Positions 21,977 to 62,913 of a stretch of 64,000 nucleotides of DNA are shown here, one piece after another. Both the position numbers and the translations under genes were made by a program. The DNA comes from Patescibacteria group bacterium (GTDB taxonomy: Bacteria > Patescibacteriota > Patescibacteriia > Patescibacteriales > UBA12465). Each line of letters begins with the position of its first letter. Position 1 is the first letter of the stretch. The notes beneath the pieces are model-generated. The model was not told the origin of the DNA. It saw only the letters and a program-made list of their open reading frames with translations, and ran no database searches. The stretch lies in the NCBI GenBank assembly GCA_041650715.1, contig JBAZKQ010000001.1, positions 723,913 through 787,912 of the forward strand, in the 5' to 3' direction.

Positions 21977-24900
21977 TTATTCTTTGTCCCCGCCTTCTTC
22001 AAGTAAGGTCGCGATAATTTCCGGCTTATCATAAATAAGCTTTTCATCATTTCTGATTTCTTCATCAATTTCAGTAACTACCTCAGAGGCCGGCTGTCCG
22101 CCGTTACCACCCAAGAGTTCCACGTTTAAGCCTAAGCCCTTGAGCTCACGGATTAAAACGTTGAAGGATTCAGGAACATTTAATTTTTCAATTTCTTCGC
22201 CCTTAATAATAGATTCATAAGCTTTGGAGCGACCAGGAACGTCATCGGATTTAATCGTTAACATTTCCTGTAAAGTGTGGGCGGCGCCATAACCTTCAAG
22301 CGCCCAAACTTCCATTTCTCCGAATCTCTGGCCGCCGAATTGCGCTTTACCGCCTAAAGGCTGCTGCGTGATTAAGGAGTAAGGACCAATAGAACGTTGG
22401 TGGATCTTATCTTCAACCATGTGGTTAAGTTTCAGTACATATTTATAACCGACCGTAATCGTGTGGTCGTAAGCGCTGCCGCTTTTACCGCTATAAAGAG
22501 TTACTTTTCCGTCCTCAGGCAAACCCGCGCGGATAAGTTCTCCCCGAATCTGATCTTCATTAATACCATCAAGCGCCGGGGTCATAACGCGATAACCAAG
22601 TTTCTTCGCAGCAAAACCTAAATGAGTTTCGAGCAATTGGCCGAGGTTCATACGAGAGATAATGCCGAGCGGAGACAAGATAACATCAATCGGTGTGCCG
22701 TCGGCCATATAAGGCATATCTTCAATCGGGACAACCTGAGAAATAACACCCTTATTACCATGGCGACCGGACATTTTATCGCCGACCTGAATCTTTCTTA
22801 AATTAGCGACGGCCACCTGAATAGATTTCAAAACGCCAGCCGATAATTTATCGCCGTCTTCACGCGAGAAAATTTTAATATCAACCACTTTACCGTGTTC
22901 GCCGTGCTCCAAGTATAAAGAGGAGTCGCGCACGTCTTTAGCTTTCTCACCGAAAATCGCGCGTAATAATTTTTCTTCCGCCGATAAAGTAGTTTCACCT
23001 TTCGGCGTAATTTTACCGACTAAAATATCACCGCTCGAAACTTCAGCGCCAATACGGATAATTCCGTCTTCGTCTAAATTCTTTAATTTTTCTTCACTGA
23101 TGTTTGGAATATCATTCGTAATCACTTCCGGACCGAGTTTTGTATCGCGGACATCAATCGTATAATTTTCAATATGGATAGAAGAATAAATATCTTCTTT
23201 AACGAGGCGTTCGGAAATAATAACCGCATCTTCATAATTGAAACCTTCCCAAGTCATGAAAGCAACAAGCACGTTGCGGCCCAAGGATAATTCACCGTTG
23301 TCGATGGCCGGGCCATCCGATAAAATATCTCCCTTCTTTACTTTCTGACCAACATCAACTACCGGGTGCTGGTTAATACAGGTGGAAGAATTAGAACGTA
23401 AAAATTTATTTAAAGGATAACGGTCGAGCGCGCCTTTCTTATTCTGAACTTCAACCGTCGCCGCTTCAACCTTAGTCACAACACCGTCTTCAAGCGCAAT
23501 CGCGACATGGCCGCTATCGCGGGCCGCTCTTTCCTCAACGCCCGTACCAACAATCGGTGCTTCGCTCTTCACGAGCGGCACAGCCTGACGTTGCATGTTC
23601 GTTCCCATGAGGGATCTCTGTCCATCGTTATGTTCCATGAAAGGAATAAGCGAAGTCGCGATAGAAATAATCTGATTAGCGGCCACACCGACGAAGTCGA
23701 TTTTACCAACTTCTTCCATGCCCGGTTGGCCGTGTTTGCGCACTTCAAATTTGCTGACAATAAAATAACCGTCCTTATCAAAAGGCACGGTGGCATCCAC
23801 CGTAATAAATTTTTCTTCTTCAAAAGCATCAAGATAAACAATCTCGTCGGTGACGCGGCTGCCTTTCTTATCGCGCACCACTTTTCGGTAAGGAGTTTCC
23901 AAGAAGCCGTAACTATTTAAGCGGGCATAGCTCGCTAAATGGCCGACTAAACCGATATTCGGACCTTCCGGAGTCGCAATCGGGCAGATACGTCCATAGT
24001 GAGTAGCGTGCACATCGCGGACATCAAAGCCGGCGCGTTCCCGGGTTAAACCACCCGGACCCATCGCTGATAAGCGACGCTTATGTTCGAGTTCAGCTAA
24101 AGGATTAGTTTGATCCATGAATTGGGATAACTGCGAAGACATAAAGAATTCGCGCACCACACCGATAACCGGACGGGCGTTAACTAATTTTGATGGCGTT
24201 AAGGAAACGATATCAGTTGTCGACATACGATCCTTAATAATGCGCTCCATTCTCGCCAAACCGACGCGGAAACGATTTTGAATCAAACCGCCAATCGCGC
24301 GGATACGGCGATTGCCTAAATGATCGATATCATCCTCCAGCTCTTTAGTAATATTTAATCGTATTACTTCTTTAACAATTAAAACTAAATCTTCTTTGCG
24401 TAAAATTCGGTTTTCTTTTTTATTGGCCGGCAAGTTCAATTCGAAACGGCGGTTCAATTTATAACGGCCAACGCGTCCGAAATCGTAACGGTCAAAGCGG
24501 AAAAACATCGAGTAGATTAATTGGCGCGCGTTTTCGACGGAAGCTAAATCTCCCGGACGAATGCGGCGATAAACTTCCTGTAAACCTTCCGCTTCAGTTT
24601 TAGCGGCATCTTTTTCAATAGTCGCTTCGATAAAAGATTTTTCATCCTTATTCTTAACGAGATCGACGTCGGCAAAAAGCTTAATCAGCTCTTCGTCTTT
24701 TTCATAACCAAAAGCCCGGAGCAATGAAGTCACCGCGACTTTTCTTTTACGATCGATGCGCACCCAGAGAACTTTATTTGAATCGGTTTCAATTTCGAGC
24801 CAAGCGCCGCGATTCGGAATAATTTTCGCGCCATAGCATTTCTTCCCTTTAACAAATTCAGCGGTAAACATAACACCGGCGCTACGGATGAGCTGAGAAA

Positions 24901-25276
24901 CAACCACACGTTCAATGCCGTTAACGATAAAAGTTCCCTTCTCGGTCATGAGCGGAAAATCACCCAAGAAAACTTCTTGGTTAATCGCTTTATTCGTTTT
25001 TTTATTAAGCAAGCGCGTCTTAACGCGGAGAGGCGCTTCATAAGTAATATTTTTCTCGCGGCTTTCAATTTCCGAGAATTTCGGTTCGTCTAAATAGTAA
25101 TCTTCGAAATATAATTCTAAATCGCGTCCGATAAAATCGGTGACCGGATTTATCTCATCAAATAATTCGGCTAATCCTTCTTTCAGAAACCAATCATAAG
25201 AATCTTTCTGAATCTCGATTAGGTCAGGCATCGGCATGATAACCTGGAGCTCAGAAAATGATTTTCTTTTAGACAT
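21977..25276 (-). CDS. rpoB: DNA-directed RNA polymerase beta subunit
   Basis: 1099 aa. Conserved RpoB blocks (GRHGNKGVIS, FGEMEVWALE). Immediately upstream of rpoC. Confidence 0.97.
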   Translation of the reverse strand: MSKRKSFSELQVIMPMPDLIEIQKDSYDWFLKEGLAELFDEINPVTDFIGRDLELYFEDYYLDEPKFSEIESREKNITYEAPLRVKTRLLNKKTNKAINQEVFLGDFPLMTEKGTFIVNGIERVVVSQLIRSAGVMFTAEFVKGKKCYGAKIIPNRGAWLEIETDSNKVLWVRIDRKRKVAVTSLLRAFGYEKDEELIKLFADVDLVKNKDEKSFIEATIEKDAAKTEAEGLQEVYRRIRPGDLASVENARQLIYSMFFRFDRYDFGRVGRYKLNRRFELNLPANKKENRILRKEDLVLIVKEVIRLNITKELEDDIDHLGNRRIRAIGGLIQNRFRVGLARMERIIKDRMSTTDIVSLTPSKLVNARPVIGVVREFFMSSQLSQFMDQTNPLAELEHKRRLSAMGPGGLTRERAGFDVRDVHATHYGRICPIATPEGPNIGLVGHLASYARLNSYGFLETPYRKVVRDKKGSRVTDEIVYLDAFEEEKFITVDATVPFDKDGYFIVSKFEVRKHGQPGMEEVGKIDFVGVAANQIISIATSLIPFMEHNDGQRSLMGTNMQRQAVPLVKSEAPIVGTGVEERAARDSGHVAIALEDGVVTKVEAATVEVQNKKGALDRYPLNKFLRSNSSTCINQHPVVDVGQKVKKGDILSDGPAIDNGELSLGRNVLVAFMTWEGFNYEDAVIISERLVKEDIYSSIHIENYTIDVRDTKLGPEVITNDIPNISEEKLKNLDEDGIIRIGAEVSSGDILVGKITPKGETTLSAEEKLLRAIFGEKAKDVRDSSLYLEHGEHGKVVDIKIFSREDGDKLSAGVLKSIQVAVANLRKIQVGDKMSGRHGNKGVISQVVPIEDMPYMADGTPIDVILSPLGIISRMNLGQLLETHLGFAAKKLGYRVMTPALDGINEDQIRGELIRAGLPEDGKVTLYSGKSGSAYDHTITVGYKYVLKLNHMVEDKIHQRSIGPYSLITQQPLGGKAQFGGQRFGEMEVWALEGYGAAHTLQEMLTIKSDDVPGRSKAYESIIKGEEIEKLNVPESFNVLIRELKGLGLNVELLGGNGGQPASEVVTEIDEEIRNDEKLIYDKPEIIATLLEEGGDKE

Positions 25277-27132: not shown

Positions 27133-29682
27133 TTACTTGGCAAAAAACATTTCATCATCATCCTCGTAAGGCTTTGCCGCCGGCTTATCGCCCTCAACTT
27201 TCGGCAAGGGATGATCCTGATGAATCTCCTCTAATATTTCATCCTCATCGTCAATTGTAGCGTCTTCTTCTTCCGGCGTCAAACTTAATTCTTCTTTAAT
27301 TTCTTCTTCATTTTCTGGGGCTTCGTCCTCCGCTTCTTCTTCCTCATTTTCATCCGGAGCGGGCTTGTCATTCTTAAAAACCAAAACATCATCCGCCTCC
27401 TCTTCATCTTCATCCGCCTCATCTTCTTCGCCTAAATAACTGGCTGGCGCCACGGCTGTCGCCCGATCATGAACCGGAATTCCGCTAATAACTTCCGTAT
27501 TCGATGCTTCATATTGTTCCTGGCTAATCATCACTTCGCGCGGCTTCGCGCCATTTGAGGGTCCAATAATACCTGACTCTTCGAGCATATCTAATATCTT
27601 AGCCGCCCGGCCATAACCGATAGAAAGACGGCGCTGCAGCATTGAGGTTGAAGCCTTTCCGGCTTTAACAATTATTTCTTTAGCTGCTTCGAATAATTCA
27701 TCTTCATCACCGTGATTACCGTCTAACCCGACTCCGGCGTTTCCGCCCACTTTCTGACGGTCGGTTACCCCCTCTAAATATTCAGCTGGTCCGCACTTAT
27801 CTTTAATATAATTTACGACATCGTTTATTTCATTATCGCTTAAGTATGCCCCCTGGATTCTTTTTGGTTTGGAAAACTCAGCGGTCATAAATAACATATC
27901 GCCTTGGCCCAATAATTTTTCTGCGCCCGACGAATCAAGAATTGTTTTCGAGTCGACGAGCGAAGCCACGGAAAACGCGATACGCGTCGGTACGTTCGCT
28001 TTGATTAACCCGGTAATAACATCAACGCTCGGCCGCTGTGTCGCAAGTATCAAATGGATACCGATGGCGCGCGACATCTGGGCAAGACGGATAATAGCCG
28101 CTTCCATTTCCTTACCGCTCGTCATCATAAAATCGGCGAGCTCATCAATAATGAAAACGATATAGGGTAATTTTTCTTTAGCTGTTTGATTATATGATTG
28201 GATATTGCGCTTCCCCGCTTTATTTAAAACATCATAGCGGCGCTCCATTTCATTCAAGCACCACTTAAGCGCGTTGATCGTTTTATTAACATCGGTAATG
28301 ACCGGGGTTAGTAAATGAGGAATGCCGTTATAAGTCGGGAGTTCAACCCGCTTCGGATCAACCATGATAAAGCGTAGTTCATCCGGATTATTTTGGTAAA
28401 GCAAAGAAACAATAATTGAATTTAAACAGACTGATTTCCCGGAATTAGTCGCGCCCGCCACAAGGAGGTGCGGCATGCGCGTTAAATCATAAAGCCAGGC
28501 CGTACCGGCGACATCTTTACCAAGAGCAATAAATAAATTATTTTTTCGATCTTTAAAAGTTTGATCTTCTAAAATTTCTCTTAGACCAACGATTGCTTTC
28601 GCGCGGTTAGGCACCTCGACACCGACTAATGACTTACCCGGAATCGGTGCTTCAATTCTAATCGGATGCGCGGCGAGCGACAACGAGAGATCATTACTTA
28701 AAGTTGTAATCCGAGAAAGTTTAACGCCTTCCGCCGGACGAAAAGTATATTGAGTCACAGTCGGGCCAACCTTAGTATCTCCCATCTCGACATCAATGCC
28801 GAATTTATTTAAAGTTTTTTGAATCTTAAGTGCATTGGCGTCGGTATCGCCGCCGATTGCTTTGGTAAATTTATTATTTAAAAGTTCGAACGGCAAATCA
28901 ATTTTAATTAAGCGTTTCGGCCAAACAATTTTTTCCTGTACCTTCGGCTTATCTTTAAGTGCCTTAGCCGGTGAAACTATTTCATCTTCCTCTTCTTCAA
29001 TTTCTTCCGGTTTCACTTCTTTCTTCTGCCAGGCACTTAAAATTTCTTCTTTCGCTTCGGCCACAAATTTCTGACCCTGATTATCCTCCACTTCCGAACT
29101 GGAAAATAAATTCTTGAAGAAAAGAGCAAAGGGCCGGAAAATCTTAGCGAGCATACTTTCCTGACCGATAATGCGCGCGAGCGAAGTATTGAAGACGAGC
29201 ACGAGCGATATTAATAAGAGGGCAATTAAAACGAGCACACCGCCCCAGAAACCGAAGATATAATTAAATAACTCACTCAAATACAAGCCGATATAGCCAC
29301 CGCCAACCCCTGTTTCCACCGTCGTCTCCCAATTAATCTGGTCGATAAAAAAGTGAAATAGAGTTTGATAAGAAATAAAAAGCGTAGTCAATCCCAAATA
29401 GTCCGTAAATTTTAAAGGTTTCTTGGTCTTACGGATTAAAATAAGCGCCCAATAAAGAAAAATGAGCGGGACAAGCCATTTACCGAAGCCGAAAATAAGG
29501 GTCAACCACTTCGAAAGGAAAATGCCAAAATGGCCGGAAAGATTAAACAGGCCGAGCAGGCTAACAAGACCGAGCACAATGAGAAACACGATAATAATAC
29601 TGCGCTTAGCGCGATCATCAAGGTCGAACTCTGGCAAGGAGATGTAATCAAGGGGATTAGAATTTTTCTTTTTACGAGACAT
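27133..29682 (-). CDS. ftsK: DNA translocase FtsK/SpoIIIE with acidic C-terminal tail
   Basis: 849 aa. N-terminal TM segments, Walker A (VAGATNSGKSV), a gamma-like winged-helix region (LQRRLSIGYGRAAKILDMLEE), then a ~100-aa Glu/Asp-rich tail. Confidence 0.9.
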   Translation of the reverse strand: MSRKKKNSNPLDYISLPEFDLDDRAKRSIIIVFLIVLGLVSLLGLFNLSGHFGIFLSKWLTLIFGFGKWLVPLIFLYWALILIRKTKKPLKFTDYLGLTTLFISYQTLFHFFIDQINWETTVETGVGGGYIGLYLSELFNYIFGFWGGVLVLIALLLISLVLVFNTSLARIIGQESMLAKIFRPFALFFKNLFSSSEVEDNQGQKFVAEAKEEILSAWQKKEVKPEEIEEEEDEIVSPAKALKDKPKVQEKIVWPKRLIKIDLPFELLNNKFTKAIGGDTDANALKIQKTLNKFGIDVEMGDTKVGPTVTQYTFRPAEGVKLSRITTLSNDLSLSLAAHPIRIEAPIPGKSLVGVEVPNRAKAIVGLREILEDQTFKDRKNNLFIALGKDVAGTAWLYDLTRMPHLLVAGATNSGKSVCLNSIIVSLLYQNNPDELRFIMVDPKRVELPTYNGIPHLLTPVITDVNKTINALKWCLNEMERRYDVLNKAGKRNIQSYNQTAKEKLPYIVFIIDELADFMMTSGKEMEAAIIRLAQMSRAIGIHLILATQRPSVDVITGLIKANVPTRIAFSVASLVDSKTILDSSGAEKLLGQGDMLFMTAEFSKPKRIQGAYLSDNEINDVVNYIKDKCGPAEYLEGVTDRQKVGGNAGVGLDGNHGDEDELFEAAKEIIVKAGKASTSMLQRRLSIGYGRAAKILDMLEESGIIGPSNGAKPREVMISQEQYEASNTEVISGIPVHDRATAVAPASYLGEEDEADEDEEEADDVLVFKNDKPAPDENEEEEAEDEAPENEEEIKEELSLTPEEEDATIDDEDEILEEIHQDHPLPKVEGDKPAAKPYEDDDEMFFAK

Positions 29683-29754
29683 AGTTAAAAATTAAGAAAA
29701 TAAAGGATAAATACATTATATCATAAGCGGGGATAAATAAAATACGGAAAAATA

Positions 29755-29893
29755 AAAAACCGTCAATAATCTGTAGAGCGTTATTTACCGGCCCGAAGGC
29801 TAATAAACGACGAAAAGTAAAAACATATTTAAGGAGAGAGATTGATTAAATGCGTTTTAGACTTCTCCGCTCTACAAGTTATTGGCGGTTTTT
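29755..29893. repeat. 26-nt imperfect inverted repeat (23/26) enclosing ~87 nt; terminator-like or structured RNA at the distal end of the GC-rich block
   Basis: 29755-29780 (AAAAACCGTCAATAATCTGTAGAGCG) pairs with 29868-29893 (CGCTCTACAAGTTATTGGCGGTTTTT). The inside holds a GCC-UUCG-GGC hairpin (minus-strand reading). A/T runs on both outer sides give a U-tract on either strand. Confidence 0.6.
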
Positions 29894-29898
29894 AGCTT

Positions 29899-29985
29899 AT
29901 TCTCTTCTGAAGATACCATAATTATATGATATTTTCGGGAAAGAAGCGAACAGGTGAACTGCCTGTTCGCGCTTTTTTTGAACTT
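29899..29985 (-). ncRNA. conserved intergenic element, copy A (hairpin plus second hairpin; no hammerhead core)
   Basis: Shares GUUCAA, a GCGAACAG(G)/(C)CUGUUCGC stem, CUUCUUUCCCGAAA, a covarying second hairpin and UUCAGAAGAGAA with 33568-33658. Starts 8 nt after the helicase stop. Confidence 0.55.
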
Positions 29986-29992
29986 AAAAGAA

Positions 29993-32900
29993 CTATTTGA
30001 TTAACCCAGCGCGACGCAAGGCTTCAGCCATAGCGTCATTCGAAGTTCCGACTTTATCTTGCCAATTTTCTTGGCGCAACTGTTTCGGTTCTTCGTACGA
30101 AGTGTCATTTCCGAAATGATATTCCGATACATAGTATTTGACATCATTCGGATCGGCGCCACAAAAAAAATCTGAAGTTTCGCCAATAGACGACCAAACG
30201 TCGCTTAAATTGCGGCTAACTCGGGCGCGCCCGCAGGAAATTTCATGAGCATCAATTTTACGGGTCGGCAATTTAGACACATTATCCATAAATTGAAGCG
30301 CACGGTCAACGTCGTTTGCGAAAGCATTAAGCAAGTAAGCCGGAATATTATTGGCCCTTACTAAAGCGTCACGGTCGGCTTGGCGTGTTTTTAGAAGATC
30401 AACGAGTCCGGCGATAAAATTATTGGCCTCGTTAATCTTTACTTTAGCTTCCAAAAAATTAGCTTCATTACTCAGGCTACGTGCTTCGGAAACTAAATAA
30501 CGGAAACGGCTCGATTCTTCAGAAATTAATTCTAAGGATTGATTAGAAAAATGATTGCTAAAGTTATTTTCTGCTTCTTCAATCAATTCTCCCACTTCGC
30601 TGTTTTCCGAAAGCAAATTTGCCTTCAGCGTACGTAAGCCCTGTCTGCTTTCGCTTAGGAGCTCAGAAAAATTTTCCGCGTTTGCCCGTTCGACAACCTG
30701 AGAAATAATTCTTGTACTTTCAGTTTGGAATCTTTCAGTCATGGCAGTCCAGCCCCAGCTATACCAGGGTCTATCGGATTCCAAGAAAAATTCACCGCTC
30801 AGTAGCGCCCGCATCATACTTATTATCGCGGAGCGATTAGCAAGCTTTGCATCTTTAGAATCCTTATGAATGGCGAGGCGGAAACTATTACCACTCAGTG
30901 AGATATACGGAAAAGCATAAACTTTTTCTCCGTTATCTTTCTGGGCATATTCTAACGGCTGAAGCTCTTTCAGCAAAGCAACAAAACTTTCTCCGCTCTC
31001 TAACCAAGGAGCATTCCTCAGCTCGCTTTCCTTAATCCGCCACGCTTCTTCGAGGCGTCTATTTTCAAAATAAACGTTTACCTCGTCAAAGCTATCAAAA
31101 CTTGTATAAGAATCGACATACAGTCTCAGCTGACGACCACCGGCAAGACTTAAGGTGCCAATTTGGTTCTTAGCCTGCTCGGCATTGATACGAATTGCAG
31201 CCTGATTATTGTTATAGTTAACAGAAATTTCTTCACCATTAACTAAAATAGAGTCAGGATTATCAGCCAGCACTTTTGCTTCGAGCTCGGCGTCGATATT
31301 AGTAAGAAGAAAATCTTCTACCTTTATCTCAGCCAAACACTTTGCCGAAACAAGTTTCAATGAAACAAACTCTTGCCACTCCGATCGTTCGAACGGATAA
31401 ACAAAAATTTTCTCACCGGCACGACGATTTAATTCTTTGGCCCGCTTTATTATTTCGTTATCAGCGGCGGCGAATTCATAATTGTCTATGCTGTAACCAT
31501 AAGACAATTTATTCACCAGCCAATTACCAAAAATTTTAGCGGCCTCAGGATGATCCGGCGTTTCCAGAACTTCTTCTTTAACAAGCATGTCATTAAAGAA
31601 TGTCTGACGCGTCGAAACACAAACGTCTTTTTCCGAGTCAAATTTAGGACTTACTCCTTCTTCGACTTTAGCCAGTTGCGGAGCAACCTCGACTAACCAT
31701 GAAGTGTCCACGTTTGTGGCCATTGTGACAAGACGAAATATTCCGCGTCGGGTCGCGAGATCGAAGGGTTGTCCGACAATCCAATTTTTTCCGTTAACAA
31801 TGGATTCATTGGAAAGCCGACGAGAATAACCGTCGCCGTTTCTGTAATCCGACCATGAGCCCTGATATAAGTGCTCAACCATGCCGGCACAAAGTGCTTT
31901 TAGGATATCCTCCCTCTTTCCAGAACTCTGAAAAGAAGAAATTTTTCCTTTGAGCGCATTTGCCAGAAGCTGACGGCGATCACGTGCCTGATGATAGGCT
32001 TTCACGAAGACACCTTTTAAACGGCGTTCTTCGTTAGACATATTCCTGGCACCGCGGAAAACCGCGAGTTGCGCCATCGGGTCCGAATCTTCTTCCTTCG
32101 GACAGAAAGCCGGACGCCAAAGATCGACTGCATCCATTACATCGTCGCCGATTGTAACTTTACGAGCAGTTACTCCACCTTGTTCAAGAATAGCGGCGAT
32201 ATCAATAATATCGTCGACTACCCCGTACTTTTCCGCAGCGATAACCATGCGGCCATACTGAACAGAAATAGGCAGGCGAGAAACCTGACGCCCGATTGCA
32301 GTTACCAAACCGCTTTCGTCCATGCAACCAAGAGCTCTGAGAGCTTGCTTAGCCTCATGAATTTGATCTTGAGGCGGCTGATGGAAAAAATTTAATTCTT
32401 CGGCATCAATCTTAGCTTCGGCCAAACGTAAGACGGTTTGGTCGAGACGAACGCGTAGAATTTCGGCTTCCGGGAAGGCTAAACGATTTTCGTCGTCCGT
32501 TGGACAACAATCGATATAGACTCCCTCGCGGCAACGACCGGCCCGGCCTTTGCGTTGGGCGCGATCAGCTAGTGAAATCGCTTTCAGGAATAATCCTTCG
32601 ACGCCTTCATTAAGCTCGATACGACGCTCAGTCCCACCATCAACAACGGCATCAATATCCTCAATCGTAATCGAGGTCTGAGCGACGTTAGTGGCAATGA
32701 CACACTTGGGGCGACTATAGGAACGGAATACCCGATCCTGTTCGTCAGCTTCAAGTTCACCGTGCAGCGGCAGGATTTCGGCGTTGAGGCCATAGCTTTC
32801 CAGCTGGCTCCATAATTCACCGATTTCTTTTTTTCCCGGCTGAAAGGCTAAAACATTGCGACCCTCTTTAAGAAGACTGCTAATGTCCTGGCCCATGTTT

Positions 32901-33457
32901 CCGGAACTAACTTGCTCCTCAACCGGGTAACAACGACCGGGAATACTAATCACCGGTGCGTTGTTGAAATAAAGCGATAATTTTTCCGCTTCAAGTGTAG
33001 CGGACATAATTACCAATTTAAATTCGACGCCGCTTTCGATTTGGCGTTTCGACCAAGCAACGAGAACCTCCATATTGAGATTCCATTCGTGGACTTCGTC
33101 GAGCACCAGAATCTGGTGACGATGAGTGCCCATTAACTCTCTCACGAGAGCGAGGCCGTCCGTTACGAATAAGCAGCGCGTATTCGGTCCGTCCTGTTTT
33201 TCATAAGCAGTCCGGAATCCGATTTCGCTACCAAGTTCGCAATTACGTTCTTGGGCAACACGTTTCGCTACCGAGCGAGCGGCGAGACGACGCGGTTGAG
33301 TTACAACGAGAGAATATCCCTCGTCGAGCAAAAATTGCGGCACGCGGGTTGATTTCCCGGCGCCAGTTTCAGCGGTGATGATAACAACTGAATTGTTAAT
33401 CACTGAATTAATAATCTGGGCCCGGTAAGAATCCACGGGCAATTTCTGGTTTTTCAT
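29993..33457 (-). CDS. DEAH-box (HrpA/HrpB-like) ATP-dependent helicase with ~500-aa extra C-terminal region
   Basis: 1154 aa. TGAGKST Walker A, DEVHE motif II, SAT, QRKGRAGR motif VI, then an HA2/OB-like region to about aa 600. I could not assign the rest. Confidence 0.8.
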   Translation of the reverse strand: MKNQKLPVDSYRAQIINSVINNSVVIITAETGAGKSTRVPQFLLDEGYSLVVTQPRRLAARSVAKRVAQERNCELGSEIGFRTAYEKQDGPNTRCLFVTDGLALVRELMGTHRHQILVLDEVHEWNLNMEVLVAWSKRQIESGVEFKLVIMSATLEAEKLSLYFNNAPVISIPGRCYPVEEQVSSGNMGQDISSLLKEGRNVLAFQPGKKEIGELWSQLESYGLNAEILPLHGELEADEQDRVFRSYSRPKCVIATNVAQTSITIEDIDAVVDGGTERRIELNEGVEGLFLKAISLADRAQRKGRAGRCREGVYIDCCPTDDENRLAFPEAEILRVRLDQTVLRLAEAKIDAEELNFFHQPPQDQIHEAKQALRALGCMDESGLVTAIGRQVSRLPISVQYGRMVIAAEKYGVVDDIIDIAAILEQGGVTARKVTIGDDVMDAVDLWRPAFCPKEEDSDPMAQLAVFRGARNMSNEERRLKGVFVKAYHQARDRRQLLANALKGKISSFQSSGKREDILKALCAGMVEHLYQGSWSDYRNGDGYSRRLSNESIVNGKNWIVGQPFDLATRRGIFRLVTMATNVDTSWLVEVAPQLAKVEEGVSPKFDSEKDVCVSTRQTFFNDMLVKEEVLETPDHPEAAKIFGNWLVNKLSYGYSIDNYEFAAADNEIIKRAKELNRRAGEKIFVYPFERSEWQEFVSLKLVSAKCLAEIKVEDFLLTNIDAELEAKVLADNPDSILVNGEEISVNYNNNQAAIRINAEQAKNQIGTLSLAGGRQLRLYVDSYTSFDSFDEVNVYFENRRLEEAWRIKESELRNAPWLESGESFVALLKELQPLEYAQKDNGEKVYAFPYISLSGNSFRLAIHKDSKDAKLANRSAIISMMRALLSGEFFLESDRPWYSWGWTAMTERFQTESTRIISQVVERANAENFSELLSESRQGLRTLKANLLSENSEVGELIEEAENNFSNHFSNQSLELISEESSRFRYLVSEARSLSNEANFLEAKVKINEANNFIAGLVDLLKTRQADRDALVRANNIPAYLLNAFANDVDRALQFMDNVSKLPTRKIDAHEISCGRARVSRNLSDVWSSIGETSDFFCGADPNDVKYYVSEYHFGNDTSYEEPKQLRQENWQDKVGTSNDAMAEALRRAGLIK

Positions 33458-33567
33458 TTTTATAAGTTTTGGTTTTGAGGATGGTCAAACAAATTTAGCC
33501 AGCCTAAAAACCAAAACTAAAGGATAAATAATAACCTTATTACTATTAAGTTTTAAACGTACACTTT

Positions 33568-33658
33568 TTTCTCTTCTGAAAGCACCATTGGTAAATTTCA
33601 CTAATGATGATTTCGGGAAAGAAGCGAACAGTTTGAAAGTCTGTTCGCTCTTGAACTT
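33568..33658 (-). ncRNA. conserved intergenic element, copy B
   Basis: Paralog of 29899-29985. Lies between the DHH-motif gene stop (33727) and the helicase leader. Confidence 0.55.
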
Positions 33659-33726
33659 TTTTCTCATCCGATTTCGCTCTTAGAGATTAAAGCGCTCAAT
33701 TTAATGTCGAGAGATGACGAAAGGAT

Positions 33727-34575
33727 TTATGCCTGGGGTTTGTCGTAAGCCCCGGCAAAACCACGGCCAGCATCACCATAGGCCTGATAAAGACCGTTAG
33801 CAGCTGCCCAGCCGTTGGGATAAGTTGGCCGGCCTTCGGCCATTACGGCCTCACCGAGAAATTCGGCGACAACCGGTTTGGTACCGGACAGGTTCACCTT
33901 GTCCGGGAAACGTTTGTCTCCCTTTGCGAGATAAGGTGTGGCTGTCATGACTCCGGCCTCTACCAAAAATGGTATCGGACCCGAGTCGCGAACATCTGCT
34001 ACCTGGACACCGCCGAGCGTGACAGTTTTGGTCGGATTTTTCAGCTGCTGAACAGCGGCTTCGATTCCGGCCATAGCTTCGGCCTCCGAAGAAACGTTTT
34101 CACGTTTCATAATTTCGGGAAGACGCATGGCGAGAACTTCTTCAGCCGTAACACCAGGACACTGTCCCTGGTAGGCGGCGCCAAGACAGTGGTCTGCGGC
34201 AGCTATCACCCGGTCCTCCTGAGTTGGCTCAACTTCGAGATATTTCAGGAGTTGCCCCAATGAGGAAGCCTCGAGATACTGGCTTGGCGGTAAGCCGAAG
34301 CCAAAATTTCCTGGGTTATGATGGTCGCATTGCCCAACCATGACCAGCGAGCCGGCGGCTTTCGGAGAGCATTCAAAAATAATGCATTCCAAAGCCTCGG
34401 CGGCAGATTCGGTTGAATCCAGAACGAAGCCGTCGGCACGGTAGGCTGTCATTGGGTTGCACTTTTCGCCTGCAATTGTTGCCGTGGCTAAAAGTAAACC
34501 GTGCTGAGCGGCAATTTTGCGTGCTCTCTGCTCCTCGATGTCGGGAGCGCCGAAAATAATCACAATTTTATTCAT
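33727..34575 (-). CDS. DHH-motif protein (putative phosphoesterase), paralog 1
   Basis: 282 aa from MNKIVIIFGAPD. Contains QCDHHNPGN and AAADHC. It aligns by eye with ORF 34862..35632 (KIVIIFGAPD/KIFFIVPAND; CDHH/IDHH; SSLGQLLKYLEVE/SSIEQVAALLGVE; IAAADH/IAANDK). The track's upstream 17 codons fall inside the conserved leader hairpin, so I trimmed them. Confidence 0.6.
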   Translation of the reverse strand: MNKIVIIFGAPDIEEQRARKIAAQHGLLLATATIAGEKCNPMTAYRADGFVLDSTESAAEALECIIFECSPKAAGSLVMVGQCDHHNPGNFGFGLPPSQYLEASSLGQLLKYLEVEPTQEDRVIAAADHCLGAAYQGQCPGVTAEEVLAMRLPEIMKRENVSSEAEAMAGIEAAVQQLKNPTKTVTLGGVQVADVRDSGPIPFLVEAGVMTATPYLAKGDKRFPDKVNLSGTKPVVAEFLGEAVMAEGRPTYPNGWAAANGLYQAYGDAGRGFAGAYDKPQA

Positions 34576-34601: not shown

Positions 34602-34656
34602 TTGCTCGGATTATTCTGTAACTCATAAATTATGAAATCCAAAATAATCCGGACAA
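34602..34656 (-). promoter_or_regulatory. conserved 5'-leader long hairpin, copy 1
   Basis: Arms 34602-34615 and 34643-34656 (minus strand UUGUCCGGAUUAUU / AAUAAUCCGAGCAA) enclose a 27-nt loop containing CAUAAUUUAUG. About 100 nt of leader is near-identical to 36580-36690. Confidence 0.6.
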
Positions 34657-34723
34657 TATGCTCCTTAAAAATGAAACAAATTTTTAGGTCTTTCTATTTC
34701 TATATTTTTCTATCAAAGAACAT

Positions 34724-34776
34724 TTCCATTTCGTCGTTTCCGACTCATCAGCACTGATACACATCAGTGGATGGAA
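34724..34776 (-). ncRNA. type III hammerhead ribozyme (HHR-1)
   Basis: Minus strand: UUCCAUC|CACUGAU-GUGU-AUCAGUG-CUGAUGA-GUCG-GAAA-CGAC-GAAA-UGGAA. All core invariants are present (C3-A9, G12-A14, A15.1:U16.1, C17, G10.1:C11.1). Stems I, II and III are 7, 4 and 6 bp. Confidence 0.9.
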
Positions 34777-34861
34777 GAGCAAGTTTAAACGGCTTGCTCT
34801 TTTGAACTTTTTTTTGCTGGCCAACGCCAATTACTCCGCAAAAGAGAGTATGATTTTGAAA

Positions 34862-36063: not shown

Positions 36064-36087
36064 CTACCGCGTTGTTTTAATGAACAT

Positions 36088-36140
36088 TTCCGTTTCGTCG
36101 TTTCCGACTCATCAGCACCGACATACATCGGTTGACGGAA
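36088..36140 (-). ncRNA. type III hammerhead ribozyme (HHR-2)
   Basis: Minus strand: UUCCGUC|AACCGAU-GUAU-GUCGGUG-CUGAUGA-GUCG-GAAA-CGAC-GAAA-CGGAA. Core and stem II are identical to HHR-1. Stems I and III carry compensatory changes. Confidence 0.9.
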
Positions 36141-36180
36141 GAGCAAGTTTGAACGACTTGCTCTTTTTTGAACGCCCTTG

Positions 36181-36579: not shown

Positions 36580-36606
36580 TTTTTTCTTTTTTCGTCCGCG
36601 ACACCA

Positions 36607-36661
36607 TTGTCCGGATTATTCTGTAGTCCATAAATTATGAAATTCAAAATAATCCGGACAA
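36607..36661 (-). promoter_or_regulatory. conserved 5'-leader long hairpin, copy 2
   Basis: Perfect 14-bp arms at 36607-36620 and 36648-36661 (UUGUCCGGAUUAUU / AAUAAUCCGGACAA). Confidence 0.6.
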
Positions 36662-36719
36662 TATGATCCACAAAAAATGAAAAATCTTTTTCGACTATTC
36701 AATTTCAAAGAACTTTTTT

Positions 36720-37668
36720 TCCTCTACCTAATCTAATTAATCTATTCTGAGGAAGTTCCCGAGTCCCAAGCTTGTTCAAGGCTTAATGGCTCGGCCGATC
36801 TCCTCATAAGAGACGGTCACGATTGTCGCTTTTCTCCGAGCCTTTTCTCCTTTCGGAAATACGGCCACAAGATACTTGGATCGCCTGCGCCCTTGATTAT
36901 AGTTTGCGACATAATCTCGGGATCAGCTCGACTAACCGTTTATTCTTTCCGGTCCGTAGGCCACGAAAGAAGCAAACGAATGAGCGCTTGCTGGTCTTAG
37001 GAAATGAACTCTCTCCCTGACTCGCAATTTTTGCGAGCAGATGTTAATTCATCTTAATCTCCTAAAATCGACACTAATCGCTCGATAATTTTTTTATTAT
37101 TTATGTACGATAGATTATTCCTTAATCTAATTAGGAGAACGGTTTAACCGCCGTTCTTTCGGCTCTCCGCTAAGCGGATAGTGATGAAGGGGAGAAACGA
37201 ATACATTATTTTGTGGCGCGCATGGGGCTGCACCGCTCTCTCTCCTCTCCATTACTATTCACTCAACAAAAAACTCTCTATTATGGAGAGAGCAAAGTTC
37301 CTATATATGCGGGCGCGCCTTAGCTTAATCAAGCCTCTGCGCTCACGTATATATCTTGGTTTTAAATAATGGCTCTCTCCTTCCATTACTTTTCTATTTG
37401 TAAATGTTCGTCTCGACTTCTCGCCCGGCTCTTGGCCTGGGCATTAGCGGAGACTGGGTCTCTCTTATCTTATTGATAAGGGATGGCCACTCGCCGTTAA
37501 GGCTTTCCCTGTTCTTACCCTTCGGATTGGACTACCACCATGCTCTCTCCTTCATAATGGTCGTCACTCTAACCCAGCTAAGTATAGAATCGGGGAGTGA
37601 TATCTCTTTATTAATGAATGTACTGGGATGTGTCCGAATGTCTCTTTGCCTTTTCTCACTTTCGATAC
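36720..37668 (-). ncRNA. candidate large structured non-coding RNA or long leader (no ORF of 60 aa or more on this strand)
   Basis: Lies downstream of the minus-strand promoter at 37701-37673. Dense local hairpins. Three GGAGAGAG-containing repeats (plus coordinates 37538-37560, 37367-37390, 37233-37256) and a complementary GCUCUCUCC (37285-37293). Class unknown. Confidence 0.45.
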
Positions 37669-37672
37669 TAAC

Positions 37673-37701
37673 AGTTTAGCATAGATATTTAATCTTGTCA
37701 A
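37673..37701 (-). promoter_or_regulatory. sigma70-like promoter facing the GC-rich block
   Basis: Minus strand TTGACA (37701-37696), 17-nt spacer, TAAACT (37678-37673). Confidence 0.55.
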
Positions 37702-37797
37702 TACTAAATCTTACATTTTATTGCTATTGTTAGCAAAACAGCGGACAGTATTGAGTAAAATAGGCATATTTATTTACTAAAAGTGTCATTATTTGAG

Positions 37798-37826
37798 TTG
37801 ACACCTATATTTAAATTTGCTATAAT
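37798..37826 (+). promoter_or_regulatory. consensus sigma70 promoter of the TrmB-like gene
   Basis: TTGACA (37798-37803), 17 nt, TATAAT (37821-37826). The -10 is embedded in palindromes GCTATAATATAGC and TATAGCTATA. Confidence 0.7.
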
Positions 37827-37911
37827 ATAGCTATAAACTACTATTTCGCTTGACGCCTAATAAGCGCAAACGAAATAAAAATCATTATTTGTAAAGTTAT
37901 CCCCAACCCAT

Positions 37912-41271: not shown

Positions 41272-42327
41272 TTAATTTATCTCAATATCAATAAATACCG
41301 CCTGCGGAACCTCAGCGCGAATCTTTTTCTCAATATCGTCTATCTTCTTCCCGACTAAACGCGGGACGCGATCCAGATATTCAACCGAAAACTTCATAAA
41401 ATTCTCAAAGCTTAATTTTGCATCATCGTATTCGTTTTCAAAAAAATGATGCTGCGACATTTCCTTCAAAAGAATAGAAGCGTTAAACTCCACATCGAAT
41501 TTAATCAAATATTTATTAACGTCTAAAATCGCCGATTTAAAATCAAGAATTTTTTCAATCGTCGGATCGGCATTTAATATGTCCCTGATTGTTTCTTCCA
41601 CTTCCGGTGGAATCGATTTCGTAATCAAATAGTTTCGATTTTTCGCGATTAGAACAATGGCCATCACACCGAGAAGCAAGCCAATCAAAATTGAACCGAT
41701 CGCGTCCCAATAAGTCTGCCCCGTTAAATAAACTAAACCGATACTAATTAAAGCGATAATAATCCCGATAACGGCCAAGCCATCCTCATATAAAACTGCA
41801 AGAACCGATGGGTCGGCATCGGCCAAAGCCTTTTTTAGTTTTATCTTCGGTGAAGTCAAAAGATGCTTTCGGATTTCTCGAACTGCAATTAAGAAAGTCG
41901 AGAATTCAATAACAAAGGAAACGCCTAAAATAATTATCGCCCAAATATTAAAATGAATTTCCGGTCCGTGCATGAGTGCGCTCACGCCGTGATAAACGGT
42001 AACGCCGCAACCGATGAAGAAAATGCCGCAGGCGGAGATGAGCGCCCAAATAAATCTTTCTTTACCATAACCATAATTAAATTCTTTGTCCGGCTTTTTC
42101 GCCGATGAGCGTACGCCGATAACGAGTAAAAACTGATTCGCCGTGTCGGCGAAACTATGAATCGCTTCAGAAAAAAGGGCGCCTGACCCCGTAAAAAAGA
42201 ACCCGACAAATTTAGCGGCACAGACGATAGCATTACCGATTAGGGCCGCTAAAACCGGCAAGAGACCGGAAACTTTGGGTGCTTTGGCTAATGACGCCGT
42301 CACTGGCATCTTCGCTTTAGGAAGCAT
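41272..42327 (-). CDS. cation diffusion facilitator family transporter
   Basis: 351 aa. GNAIVCAAKFVGFFFTGSGALFSEAIHSFADTANQ is the CDF signature. 5-6 TM helices plus a cytoplasmic domain. Confidence 0.8.
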   Translation of the reverse strand: MLPKAKMPVTASLAKAPKVSGLLPVLAALIGNAIVCAAKFVGFFFTGSGALFSEAIHSFADTANQFLLVIGVRSSAKKPDKEFNYGYGKERFIWALISACGIFFIGCGVTVYHGVSALMHGPEIHFNIWAIIILGVSFVIEFSTFLIAVREIRKHLLTSPKIKLKKALADADPSVLAVLYEDGLAVIGIIIALISIGLVYLTGQTYWDAIGSILIGLLLGVMAIVLIAKNRNYLITKSIPPEVEETIRDILNADPTIEKILDFKSAILDVNKYLIKFDVEFNASILLKEMSQHHFFENEYDDAKLSFENFMKFSVEYLDRVPRLVGKKIDDIEKKIRAEVPQAVFIDIEIN

Positions 42328-61582: not shown

Positions 61583-61656
61583 GGGCAATTAGCTCAGTTG
61601 GTTAGAGCGCAACACTGATAATGTTGAGGTCGGAGGTTCGAATCCTCCATTGCCCA
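61583..61656 (+). tRNA. tRNA-Ile(GAU)
   Basis: GGGCAAT/ATTGCCC acceptor stem, anticodon loop CTGATAA, T-loop GGTTCGAATCC. Confidence 0.9.
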
Positions 61657-61680
61657 CTCTAAAGTATAGTTGATAATTAT

Positions 61681-61753
61681 AGCGGGATAGAGCAGTTGGC
61701 AGCTCGCTAGGCCCATAACCTAGAGGTCGTCGGTTCGAGTCCGACTCCCGCAA
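61681..61753 (+). tRNA. tRNA-Met(CAU), initiator-type
   Basis: Anticodon loop CCCATAA. An A1/A72 mismatch at the top of the acceptor stem and A73. The body is close to what I recall of E. coli tRNA-fMet (GAGCAG..GCTCG...AGGTCGTCGGTTCGA.TCCG.C.CCCGCAAC). Confidence 0.8.
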
Positions 61754-61777
61754 CAAGTTTAACAATAGTATTTTCAT

Positions 61778-62092
61778 GCCTCGGTAGCTCAGTGGTAGAG
61801 CAAAGGACTGGTTTTCGGTCCGCTCAATGGAAACATTGAGATGAAAATCGGGTGAATTCGGGGAAGCCTTAATTTAGAAATAAAAAAGGTAATCCCGAGC
61901 CAAGCTTTAATTGGGTAAATAATTAAAGAAGGTGTAGAGACTAGCGGGTGAGCCCAACAATAACCCCGCCGCGAGCGCCCGACTCCGTCCTTAAAAATTA
62001 AGCGGAGATGATATAGTCCGATCCTTAAGGAAACTTAAGTTGTAGCAAGGAAAATCCTTGTGTCGTCAGTTCGATTCTGACCCGGGGCACCA
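61778..62092 (+). tRNA. tRNA-Phe(GAA) interrupted by a group I intron; CCA encoded
   Basis: Exons 61778-61809 and 62050-62092 join to GCCUCGGUAGCUCAGUGGUAGAGCAAAGGACU|GAAAAUCCUUGUGUCGUCAGUUCGAUUCUGACCCGGGGCACCA. This makes a normal cloverleaf with anticodon GAA. Confidence 0.85.
61810..62049 (+). ncRNA. group I intron (IC3-like) in the tRNA-Phe anticodon loop
   Basis: P1 pairs exon GGACU with the intron guide GGUCC (61817-61821), with a U.G wobble at the 5' splice site. The intron ends in G. Core strings AAUUCGGGGAAGCCUUAA, AAUCCCGAGCCAAGCU and GAAGGUGUAGAGACUAG match tRNA-borne IC3 introns (Azoarcus tRNA-Ile, cyanobacterial tRNA-Leu) as I recall them. Confidence 0.85.
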
Positions 62093-62103
62093 ATCAGTAG
62101 ATA

Positions 62104-62153
62104 AAAAAGTGAACCCATGATATAATTATACTGTTACCGTGGGTTCACTTTTT
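62104..62153 (+). terminator. long hairpin plus T-run after the tRNA cluster
   Basis: AAAAAGTGAACCCA ... TGGGTTCACTTTTTT. The loop contains TGATATAAT, an extended -10-like sequence. Confidence 0.6.
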
Positions 62154-62158
62154 TATTT

Positions 62159-62842
62159 ATGCGTTTAGATAAACTAGAAGTCATAGAATTAAGAAAATCC
62201 GGCCAGTCTTATGGTCAAATAAGTGCTTCTTTGCATATTCCGAAAAGCACCCTTAGTGTTTGGCTAAAAGATATTAAACTTTCACAAATCGCGCAAAAAA
62301 AGATAAGGTCTCGGACAAATTTAACTGCTATAAGCAAATTAATTGAGAGAAATAAAAACCAAACCATCCTTGCGGCCGACAGGCAGGAGAAAATTCGGTC
62401 CTTAGCTAAGGCCGAGTCAAAAAAATTACTTTTAGATCCTCTATTTCTGGCCGGCGTTTCCTTATATTGGGCCGAAGGCTATAAACAAGGGGCGCTCGGC
62501 AGCAAATGGAAAAGCATTGACTTTGCCAACTCCGATCCGGAAATGATCAGATTGATGGTTAATTTTTTCACAAAATTCTTTGAATTTAAAAAAACAGAAA
62601 TTAAAGTCCAAATAATGCTGCACAATCCAAAAGACTCCACCGCGGCTATTAATTTTTGGCAACATCTTACGGGCATACCAAAAACCAATTTTTTTAAAGT
62701 TTCCACAGCTATTAGCCGGGCCAGTTTACAAAAGAGAAATAAAAAACTACAATATGGAACGATACACCTGAGAGTCAATAAGGTCGAATCTTTTTTTCGT
62801 CTGATTGGGTGGATTGATGGTTTAAAAGAAAAATTATTATAA
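62159..62842 (+). CDS. LAGLIDADG-like homing-endonuclease-family protein with N-terminal HTH (tentative)
   Basis: 227 aa. N-terminal HTH (SGQSYGQISASLHIPKSTLSVWLKD). Single LAGLIDADG-like helix (DPLFLAGVSLYWAEGYK). Wedged between two tRNA genes; its stop abuts tRNA-Pro. Confidence 0.45.
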   Translation: MRLDKLEVIELRKSGQSYGQISASLHIPKSTLSVWLKDIKLSQIAQKKIRSRTNLTAISKLIERNKNQTILAADRQEKIRSLAKAESKKLLLDPLFLAGVSLYWAEGYKQGALGSKWKSIDFANSDPEMIRLMVNFFTKFFEFKKTEIKVQIMLHNPKDSTAAINFWQHLTGIPKTNFFKVSTAISRASLQKRNKKLQYGTIHLRVNKVESFFRLIGWIDGLKEKLL

Positions 62843-62913
62843 CGGGGCGTCGTATACCGGTAGTACGCATGCTTTGGGAGCATGTTGACTGGGTTCAATT
62901 CCCAGCGCCCCGA
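62843..62913 (+). tRNA. tRNA-Pro(UGG)
   Basis: CGGGGCG/CGCCCCG acceptor stem, anticodon loop TTTGGGA, T-loop GGTTCAATTCC. 71 nt with a short D-loop and variable loop. Followed by the GAAGGC-TTAG-GCCTTC plus T-run terminator (62919-62948). Confidence 0.85.

Follow-up and report, generated by a model that had tools for sequence, protein, structure and literature searches.

A cassette of two adjoining hairpins, which we call H1-Y, is a conserved and covarying RNA motif of Patescibacteria. It consists of a 9-10 bp hairpin (H1) joined with zero linker to a long imperfect hairpin (Y), the latter with ~21 stacked layers, and it is absent from Rfam 15. The window (the whole 64-kb stretch of DNA analysed here) carries two copies, A and B, both on the minus strand, and the element was found in at least 27 places in related Patescibacteria contigs. 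In two relatives, H1 followed by a type III hammerhead occupies the orthologous position of a Y hairpin. We favour, tentatively and with a little less than even confidence, the hypothesis that H1-Y is a boundary or processing cassette where a protein endonuclease does the work of the neighbouring hammerheads.

Judged from its genes, the window is CPR bacterial chromosome: it carries a bacterial rpoB, an FtsK/SpoIIIE homologue (ftsK) and the gene of an HrpA-like DEAH helicase (Table 1). A phage origin was ruled out, since rpoB is bacterial, the helicase is 100% identical to a protein encoded on an 809-kb contig of a Patescibacteria MAG, and the DNA has no match in the phage collection. The minus strand carries all genes from about position 42300 down to 21977, and because of this the H1-Y sites are intergenic spacers of a co-directional gene array. 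Every Y copy lies in sense orientation between co-directional ORFs, and starts a few to ~100 nt past a stop codon. Where no small RNA lies 3′ of Y, an mRNA leader follows, such as the conserved long hairpin that precedes the helicase AUG. The purine-rich strand of Y was considered as the ribosome-binding site of a small ORF, and rejected because just a 3-codon frame follows. Elsewhere in the window, a group I intron (93 bits) lies inside a tRNA gene cluster.

Copies A and B had been predicted from the sequence, and were borne out by exact string matches and by a repeat finder. The sequence CTTCTTTCCCGAAA occurs exactly in the window only at 29933-29946 and 33611-33624 (8 matches vs 1.7 expected when up to two mismatches are allowed), TTCAGAAGAGAA only at 29900-29911 and 33569-33580, and the stretches 29926-29974 and 33604-33652 share 82% identity. 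As the original prediction stated, sites A and B and the two hammerhead sites C and D all begin with GUUCAA, an A-run and a strong hairpin. It also held the H1 loops to be unrelated; in fact nearly all of them contain GUUCA or GUUUA. In a consensus scan, H1 of copy A is terminator-like on both strands, and H1 of copy B and those of the hammerhead sites mostly fail. The sense tail after H1, UUCUUUCC, is a weak U-tract, and terminator-like sites show no excess in the region (12 vs 9.3 in shuffles). Because H1 and the UUCUUU after it look like a weak intrinsic terminator, some of the function could lie in transcription.

Table 1. Location of the cassettes and of associated features. Positions without an L number are those of the window; L numbers denote other loci. 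Paired strands are separated by a slash.
Feature	Position	Strand	Description
rpoB	21977-25276	-	1099 aa; 47-57% identity to bacterial rpoB sequences
FtsK/SpoIIIE homologue	27133-29682	-	
HrpA-like DEAH helicase	29993-33457	-	1154 aa; stop codon 29993-29995
Copy A	29899-29985	-	GUUCAA (29978-29983) and A-run precede H1
H1, copy A	29946-29970	-	stem GCGAACAGG / CCUGUUCGC, loop CAGUUCA; starts 23 nt past the helicase stop codon
Y, copy A	29900-29945	-	MFE -28, z -5.7; covariance model 94.2 bits
Y of A, lower stem	29945-29940 / 29905-29900	-	UUCUUU with AGAGAA
Y of A, above lower stem	29939-29937 / 29908-29906	-	mismatch C29939.A29906, pair C29938-G29907, mismatch C29937.A29908
Y of A, short helix	29936-29934 / 29911-29909	-	GAA with UUC, then mismatch A29933.C29912
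Y of A, upper stem	29932-29925 / 29920-29913	-	AUAUCAUA with UAUGGUAU, loop UAAU
Copy B	33568-33658	-	GUUCAA (33651-33656) precedes H1
H1, copy B	33624-33648	-	stem GCGAACAG / CUGUUCGC, loop ACUUUCAAA
Y, copy B	33569-33623	-	MFE -27.2, z -4.5; covariance model 81.7 bits
Y of B, lower stem	33623-33618 / 33574-33569	-	UUCUUU with AGAGAA
Y of B, above lower stem	33617-33615 / 33577-33575	-	mismatch C33617.A33575, pair C33616-G33576, mismatch C33615.A33577
Y of B, short helix	33614-33611 / 33581-33578	-	GAAA with UUUC, then 1x1 mismatch U33610.C33582
Y of B, upper stem	33609-33603 / 33589-33583	-	CAUCAUU with AAUGGUG, including wobble U33607.G33585; 13-nt loop
Sister cassette C	34723-34800	-	H1 AGAGCAAG/CUUGCUCU (34776-34800), directly then type III hammerhead (34723-34777; RF00008, 41.4 bits, E 5e-6, below Rfam gathering cut-off)
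Sister cassette D	36088-36163	-	H1 GAGCAAG/CUUGCUC (36141-36163), directly then type III hammerhead (36088-36140; RF00008 match 36087-36127, 24.5 bits, below Rfam gathering cut-off)
Core-variant hammerheads	L056 274-296, 854-876; L071 845-867; L097 1594-1616(-); L121 9300-9322, 11963-11985		
GUUCA(A) sites	29978-29983, 29956-29959, 33651-33656, 34803-34808, 36165-36170	-	
GUUCA(A) 3′ of hammerheads	34716-34722, 36080-36086		
Small RNA	29753-29893	-	conserved, ~140 nt; starts about 7 nt after Y of copy A
Small RNA, relatives	L070 7555-7697(-); L071 1935-2075; L056 4405-4545; L055 5725-5835; L057 3480-3590		
Small RNA, further loci	L113, L109, L125, L126, L097, L120		
Element X	33662-33718	-	conserved, ~55 nt; between upstream stop codon and H1 of copy B (UCGUCAUCUCUCGACAUUAAAUUGAGCGCUUUAAUCUCUAAGAGCGAAAUCGGAUGAGA)
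Element X, relatives	L055 1862-1920, 5525-5585; L056 4245-4300; L070 7800-7860(-); L078 1190-1250		
Element X′	34812-34848	-	also L056 180-225 and 760-805
Helicase leader hairpin	33465-33518	-	
Leader hairpin, relatives	L055 2050-2110; L056 925-985; L057 115-170		
Long hairpin before start codons	34597-34685, 36602-36690		ATG at 34626 and 36579; same hairpin at L055 120-200
Y2 sites	L058 6895-6955, 10396-10445, 2786-2854, 4450-4520; L059 9811-9855, 13453-13500		
Group I intron	61801-62040		inside tRNA gene cluster 61583-62913
tRNA genes around the intron	61583-61656, 61681-61753, 62843-62913		

From its base, Y comprises a 6-7 bp lower stem, with a pyrimidine-rich 5′ strand and a purine-rich 3′ strand, a C.A mismatch (C.A / C-G / C.A in many copies), a 4-bp helix, a 1x1 mismatch of variable identity, an upper stem of 7-8 bp and a variable loop. 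Each copy examined folds into H1 plus the long hairpin, with z-scores of -4.5 to -7.1 relative to shuffles. In the alignment of 27 copies, pairing holds in 97.4% of the cells and both partners change in 21 of the 27 pairs, figures that are somewhat favoured by an alignment fitted to the covariance model. When the partners were slid, ~50% pairing and 2-7 double-changed pairs were obtained, and none of 500 shuffles reached the observed values. Compensatory changes affect 8 of the 9 pairs of H1, and 11 of the 15 pairs in the register formed by UUCUUU/AGAGAA, the C-G pair and GAAA/UUUC, which is 96.8% paired. The original prediction was right that the stem of the second hairpin covaries, and the relatives extend this covariation. 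It further proposed that CUUCU pairs with AGAAG to close a two-hairpin junction, but that helix is paired in 85.8% of the cases with no compensatory pair (27 copies), and the covariation supports a single continuous imperfect hairpin adjoining H1.

Among the copies the 4-bp helix GAAA/UUUC varies to GAGA/UCUC, AAGC/GCUU or GAGAC/GUCUC. The C.A mismatch beside it is kept in 25 of 27 copies (one or two relatives have a U-A pair instead), and the C-G pair below this mismatch and the U.G wobble of the upper stem in 26 of 27 each; all three persist even where the neighbouring helices have changed. In all 27 copies the duplex contains 17-21 base pairs and 2-3 single mismatches, which amounts to about two helical turns, and the portion above the mismatch usually has 12 layers. 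No conserved unpaired core, junction, pseudoknot, or conserved loop or linker nucleotide was seen in Y across these copies. Since the compensatory changes are distributed across genomes whose helicases are only 37-77% identical, the element is under selection.

The covariance model, built from 7 sequences, located 27 copies at E<1e-6, spread over 19 loci and in several cases divergent, along with a few weaker ones. In the 64-kb window it found no copy besides A and B. The homologue search and covariation analysis proposed with the original prediction yielded at least 27 places in related contigs, and strong covariation. Three loci with helicase homologues (L055, L056 and L057; 58-70% identity) have the same element at the same places: H1-Y lies upstream of the helicase gene in L055 and L057 and downstream of it in L056, and the downstream site of L055 holds a sequence-divergent, structurally equivalent version. 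A pattern scan of species-representative genomes gave 34 matches, of which 3 were real (L070, L071 and L078), indicating that the element is rare there. Scanning metagenomes with H1 and the first nine bases of Y only, the remainder of Y being unconstrained, added about a dozen distinct loci. Nothing similar was found in the phage collection by DNA match or among viral contigs by a protein-based search, and the 54 matches of the pattern scan in viral contigs were all due to chance. The more distant loci L058 and L059 carry a second type, Y2, in which H1 and a long hairpin stand on both sides of the helicase gene. In Y2 a lower stem of 5 bp leads, through a U-rich internal loop (UAU(U)/UU) or a bulged C, into an upper stem of 12 bp, where the CAUNA/UNGUG U.G wobble recurs. 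L070 (CAZCQW010000002.1) and L071 (CAZFUP010000005.1) are MAG contigs labelled 'uncultured Gammaproteobacteria'; they carry a Patescibacteria-type helicase tail, X, H1-Y, small RNA and hammerhead, and hence these bins may be misclassified or contaminated.

The small RNA that follows Y of copy A has a ~25-bp closing helix with a U-run terminator. A GAAAAG/CUUUUC helix carries the CU-rich apical loop, in which the anti-Shine-Dalgarno-like CUCUCUCC is invariant, and the third hairpin is variable. RNAalifold on 12 loci gave 49 pairs, 24 of them with compensatory changes, and no Rfam family corresponds to this RNA. The CUCUCUCC core is present within ~130 nt 3′ of Y in 18 of 29 copies, the small RNA starting within ~10 nt of Y. 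It is likely that the small RNA is the downstream product of processing at Y.

A further conserved element, X, has the consensus CYCUCGACAUUAAAUUGRGCGCUUUAAUCYCUAAGAGCGAAAUCGGAUGRGA, with a covarying CYC/GRG hairpin and a covarying UCYC/GRGA helix; should the invariant CGC/GCG pair as well, the latter would make a pseudoknot. Of the 29 Y copies, 13 have X beside them; copy A lacks it, so Y does not depend on X. A reading of X as a sigma-70 promoter (TNGACA-N15-TAAUCY) was rejected: the spacer is too short, the consensus scan gave no match at this place, and X has RNA-type covariation. In place of X, another conserved sequence, X′ (CUCUCUUUUGCGGAGUAAUUGGCGUUGGCCAGC), precedes the H1-hammerhead cassettes.

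Other hairpins occur near the start codons. The conserved helicase leader hairpin (AGUUUUGGUUUU…AAAACCAAAACU) ends a few nt before the AUG, and no Shine-Dalgarno sequence is visible there. A long hairpin, AUUGUCCGGAUUAUU…AAUAAUCCGGACAAU, present in two copies with 83% identity, directly precedes the start codon of the gene downstream of each hammerhead site, and its 89-nt repeat unit extends across this codon into the coding sequence. Finally, the region 36700-37900, ORF-poor over about 1.2 kb, contains five CTCTCTCC/GGAGAGAG cores on both strands, without an Rfam match at gathering score, and may encode further non-coding RNAs.

The relation of Y to known ribozymes was analysed with Rfam 15. 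A cmscan of 33440-33740 and 29690-30000, with permissive filters and E≤10, returned only chance matches to miRNA, snoRNA and sRNA families, the majority of them on the opposite strand. Twister-sister, pistol, hatchet and Drum, which we take to be families present in Rfam 15, had been named for comparison; none matched in these scans at E≤10, and none reached its gathering score in the whole window. RF00008 matches only the two sister sites, with no match at copies A and B even in focused scans. The statement that neither copy has a CUGAUGA, so that the element is not a hammerhead, was correct. A stem II equivalent and a three-helix junction are likewise absent from both copies, where one hairpin only follows H1. 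The likeness of CAGAAGAG to a CUGAUGA core is superficial, and it sits inside the covarying lower stem. Readings as a permuted hammerhead, in which GAAA-hairpin-C would be stem III plus C17 or CAGAAGAG a mutated form of CUGAUGAG, were discarded, since their nucleotides belong to covarying helices and there is no stem II or partner strand. The idea of the H1 loop as a tRNA T-loop mimic was dropped as well, its GUUCA being out of T-loop register. On the protein side, all 27 copies of Y, with ~21 stacked layers, agree with the about 20 bp or more of largely continuous dsRNA expected of an RNase III substrate. With an E. coli RNase III sequence as query, tblastn detected no RNase III gene in ~0.6 Mb (the window, which is 64 kb of an 809-kb contig, and related loci, genomes partly sampled).

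The hammerhead loci, which were the lead in the original prediction, proved to be a good one: the H1 chassis and a stem-III-like lower stem are common to both cassette types. Both hammerheads of the window have the canonical CUGAUGA...GAAA core. The helicase leader (AAAACUUAAUAGU..AAGGUU) that stands after H1-Y in the window has an H1-hammerhead directly before it in L056. In L057, an H1-hammerhead is placed between the helicase and the small RNA, where the window, L056, L070, L078 and L120 have H1-Y, and both cassette types of L057 start with an identical GCUUCCUUCC after H1. These two cases show the positional equivalence of the cassettes. Hammerhead cassettes on the same chassis also share contigs with Y in L071, L097, L109, L121, L129 and L136. 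Formally, Y resembles stem III plus the C plus stem I without the catalytic strands, and on such sequence likeness a hammerhead ancestry of Y is plausible.

Two further features of the cassettes were noted. In many hammerheads of the clade a core variant, CCGAUGAG or CCGACGAG, replaces CUGAUGAG (C at core position 4), the stems being otherwise intact. Each cassette, in the window and in all related loci, comes with three GUUCA(A) sites, one lying 3-8 nt before H1, one in the loop of H1 and one immediately 3′ of the hammerhead (GUUCAUUAAAA); these repeats could be a target-site duplication of the cassette or a recognition motif. In the literature library searched, no papers on hammerheads in Patescibacteria/CPR were found. 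To our knowledge, little is established about what hammerheads do in bacteria.

If H1-Y is a processing cassette, it would mark a cut boundary in a polycistronic transcript. After the cut, the upstream mRNA would retain H1 as a protective 3′ hairpin, and the downstream RNA would be either the helicase mRNA with its leader hairpin or the ~140-nt small RNA, which starts a few nt after Y. In the sister cassettes, the type III hammerhead on the same H1 chassis would make the cut. Y lacks the catalytic core, and there a protein endonuclease recognising the two-turn duplex would therefore make it: an RNase III-type enzyme or, alternatively, a more specific double-strand RNA-binding nuclease that reads the C.A and U.G pairs. 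Functionally, Y would then match the neighbouring hammerheads, but depend on a protein. A role in processing polycistronic mRNAs has been proposed for bacterial hammerheads and twisters (PMC6765202), and in Clostridium intergenic processing sites with adjacent stabilising stem-loops are documented (PMC4423207). Another ribozyme class, a degenerate hammerhead, and a protein-binding or processing site were all considered at the outset, and the last appears to fit best, given the sense location after stop codons, the small RNA 5′ edge, the replacement by hammerheads, and a ~21-layer duplex with conserved C.A and U.G pairs.

RNase III normally requires little sequence specificity. The conservation in Y of the stem sequences, C.A and U.G agrees with a binding protein of greater specificity, and also with a site that is bound without being cut. 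That Y is a protein-binding site without cleavage, acting in autoregulation, RNA stabilisation or insulation between cistrons, is the chief alternative, possible but less probable than processing. The candidate binders are the HrpA-like DEAH helicase, which Y flanks, or another double-strand RNA-binding or ribosomal-type protein. Conservation of the helix sequences and non-canonical pairs beyond the needs of pairing agrees with this, as do the helicase-X-H1-Y-sRNA order, kept in relatives with 37-59% identical helicases, and the H1 plus long hairpin with a U.G wobble that L058 and L059 keep on both sides of the helicase gene. However, many copies adjoin other genes, far from helicase genes, and the fact that a self-cleaving hammerhead can take the same places suggests that cleavage is what the two have in common. 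With an uncleaved Y, H1 might be a leaky bidirectional terminator or a 3′ stabiliser; its terminator-like score on both strands in copy A speaks for the former, but the U-tract UUCUUUCC is poor and the A-run is short in relatives.

It is improbable that the cassette is a DNA-level or mobile element, with GUUCA as target-site duplication or the imperfect palindrome as a recombination site, and with an incidental RNA structure. GUUCA(A) does lie 5′ of H1, in the H1 loop and again 3′ of hammerhead cassettes, for example with AGUUCAU flanking the cassette at either end in L056 and AUGUUCA doing so in L121, and H1-hammerhead and H1-Y swap at the same sites. Nevertheless, the copies are syntenic and old, their positions being kept between flanking proteins of ~40-60% identity; they are few (2 in 64 kb) and always in sense orientation; the pairs covary as RNA and include strand-specific U.G wobbles; and the Y copies linked to the small RNA have no 3′ GUUCA.

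We regard as very unlikely that Y, alone or together with H1 and/or X, belongs to a new self-cleaving ribozyme class that substitutes for the hammerhead. Y occupies hammerhead positions on the same H1 chassis, the conserved C of C.A takes the place of the cleavage-site C17 of the hammerhead cassette (H1-UUCCUUC-C), a pseudoknot may form in X, and classes have previously been found next to known ones (PMC5737381; PMC6765202). Yet Y is a nearly continuous duplex of plain hairpin type, with 1x1 mismatches only and no multi-helix junction, pseudoknot or conserved unpaired, loop or linker nucleotide. Every self-cleaving class known to us needs a junction, a pseudoknot or sizeable internal loops. 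In addition, C.A is replaced by U-A in one or two relatives, copy A and many others lack X, and no Rfam ribozyme matched at E≤10. Similarly slim is the chance that H1-Y is a catalytic or RNA-guided hammerhead descendant without the core, with scission at the conserved C of C.A; this would involve either a self-cleaving mechanism that is new and minimal, in which H1 or X might assist, or another RNA acting in trans, and if true H1-Y would be a new ribozyme class in Patescibacteria. That Y is a decaying, functionless hammerhead devoid of core and stem II is hardly credible: the H1 and stem-III-like lower-stem sequence shared with hammerhead cassettes and the missing CUGAUGA agree with it, but 27 or more copies from divergent genomes show 97% pairing, compensatory changes in 21 of 27 pairs and specific conserved mismatches, Y is often better conserved than the flanking proteins, and the divergent flanks exclude very recent copies as the source of the alignment. 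The covariation and the conserved mismatches thus indicate that Y is maintained by selection, whether or not it originated from a hammerhead.

These intergenic slots offer a natural comparison: after the same H1, one genome has a hammerhead where another has a duplex without a ribozyme, and some of the slots coincide exactly with the 5′ edge of a conserved small RNA. Should a protein nuclease cut Y, then: i) the hammerheads here would be intercistronic and small RNA-maturation scissors, and ii) ribozyme and protein-dependent processing would be evolutionarily interchangeable. H1-Y, X and the CUCUCUCC small RNA add uncatalogued RNA motifs for the poorly studied Patescibacteria.

The stem-loops cut by RNase III between the cistrons of phage T7 early mRNA, and the stems that flank rRNA, are like Y imperfect duplexes of about two turns with small internal mismatches; like Y they lie between cistrons, and after cutting the upstream RNA would end in a protective hairpin. 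Unlike typical RNase III sites, Y has a more strongly conserved stem sequence, C.A and U.G, and abuts a separate and obligatory upstream hairpin, H1. The processing and stabilisation sites of Clostridium cellulolyticum are also intergenic, with stem-loops at the 3′ ends of upstream genes, and set the relative transcript abundance within one operon (PMC4423207); they were defined experimentally and form no conserved family, whereas H1-Y is a motif defined by sequence comparison. Drum and DUF3800-I, examples of candidate structured RNAs that lie next to ribozymes or have no assigned function, are like H1-Y conserved bacterial non-coding motifs that came from comparative analysis, but they have complex folds and are tied to particular protein genes (PMC5737381), whereas H1-Y consists of two simple hairpins with no Rfam match. 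In comparison with the type III hammerhead cassettes (RF00008), Y lacks CUGAUGA, stem II, the GAAA junction strand and the three-way junction, and it is one continuous hairpin without the stem I loop (GYGU) and the stem II loop (GAAA/UAAA). Both cassettes, however, lie on the sense strand just past stop codons, both begin with GUUCA and an A-run followed by an H1 with a GUUCA loop, and in both a zero-linker pyrimidine-rich strand pairs with a purine-rich 3′ strand, as stem III in the hammerhead and as the lower stem in Y.
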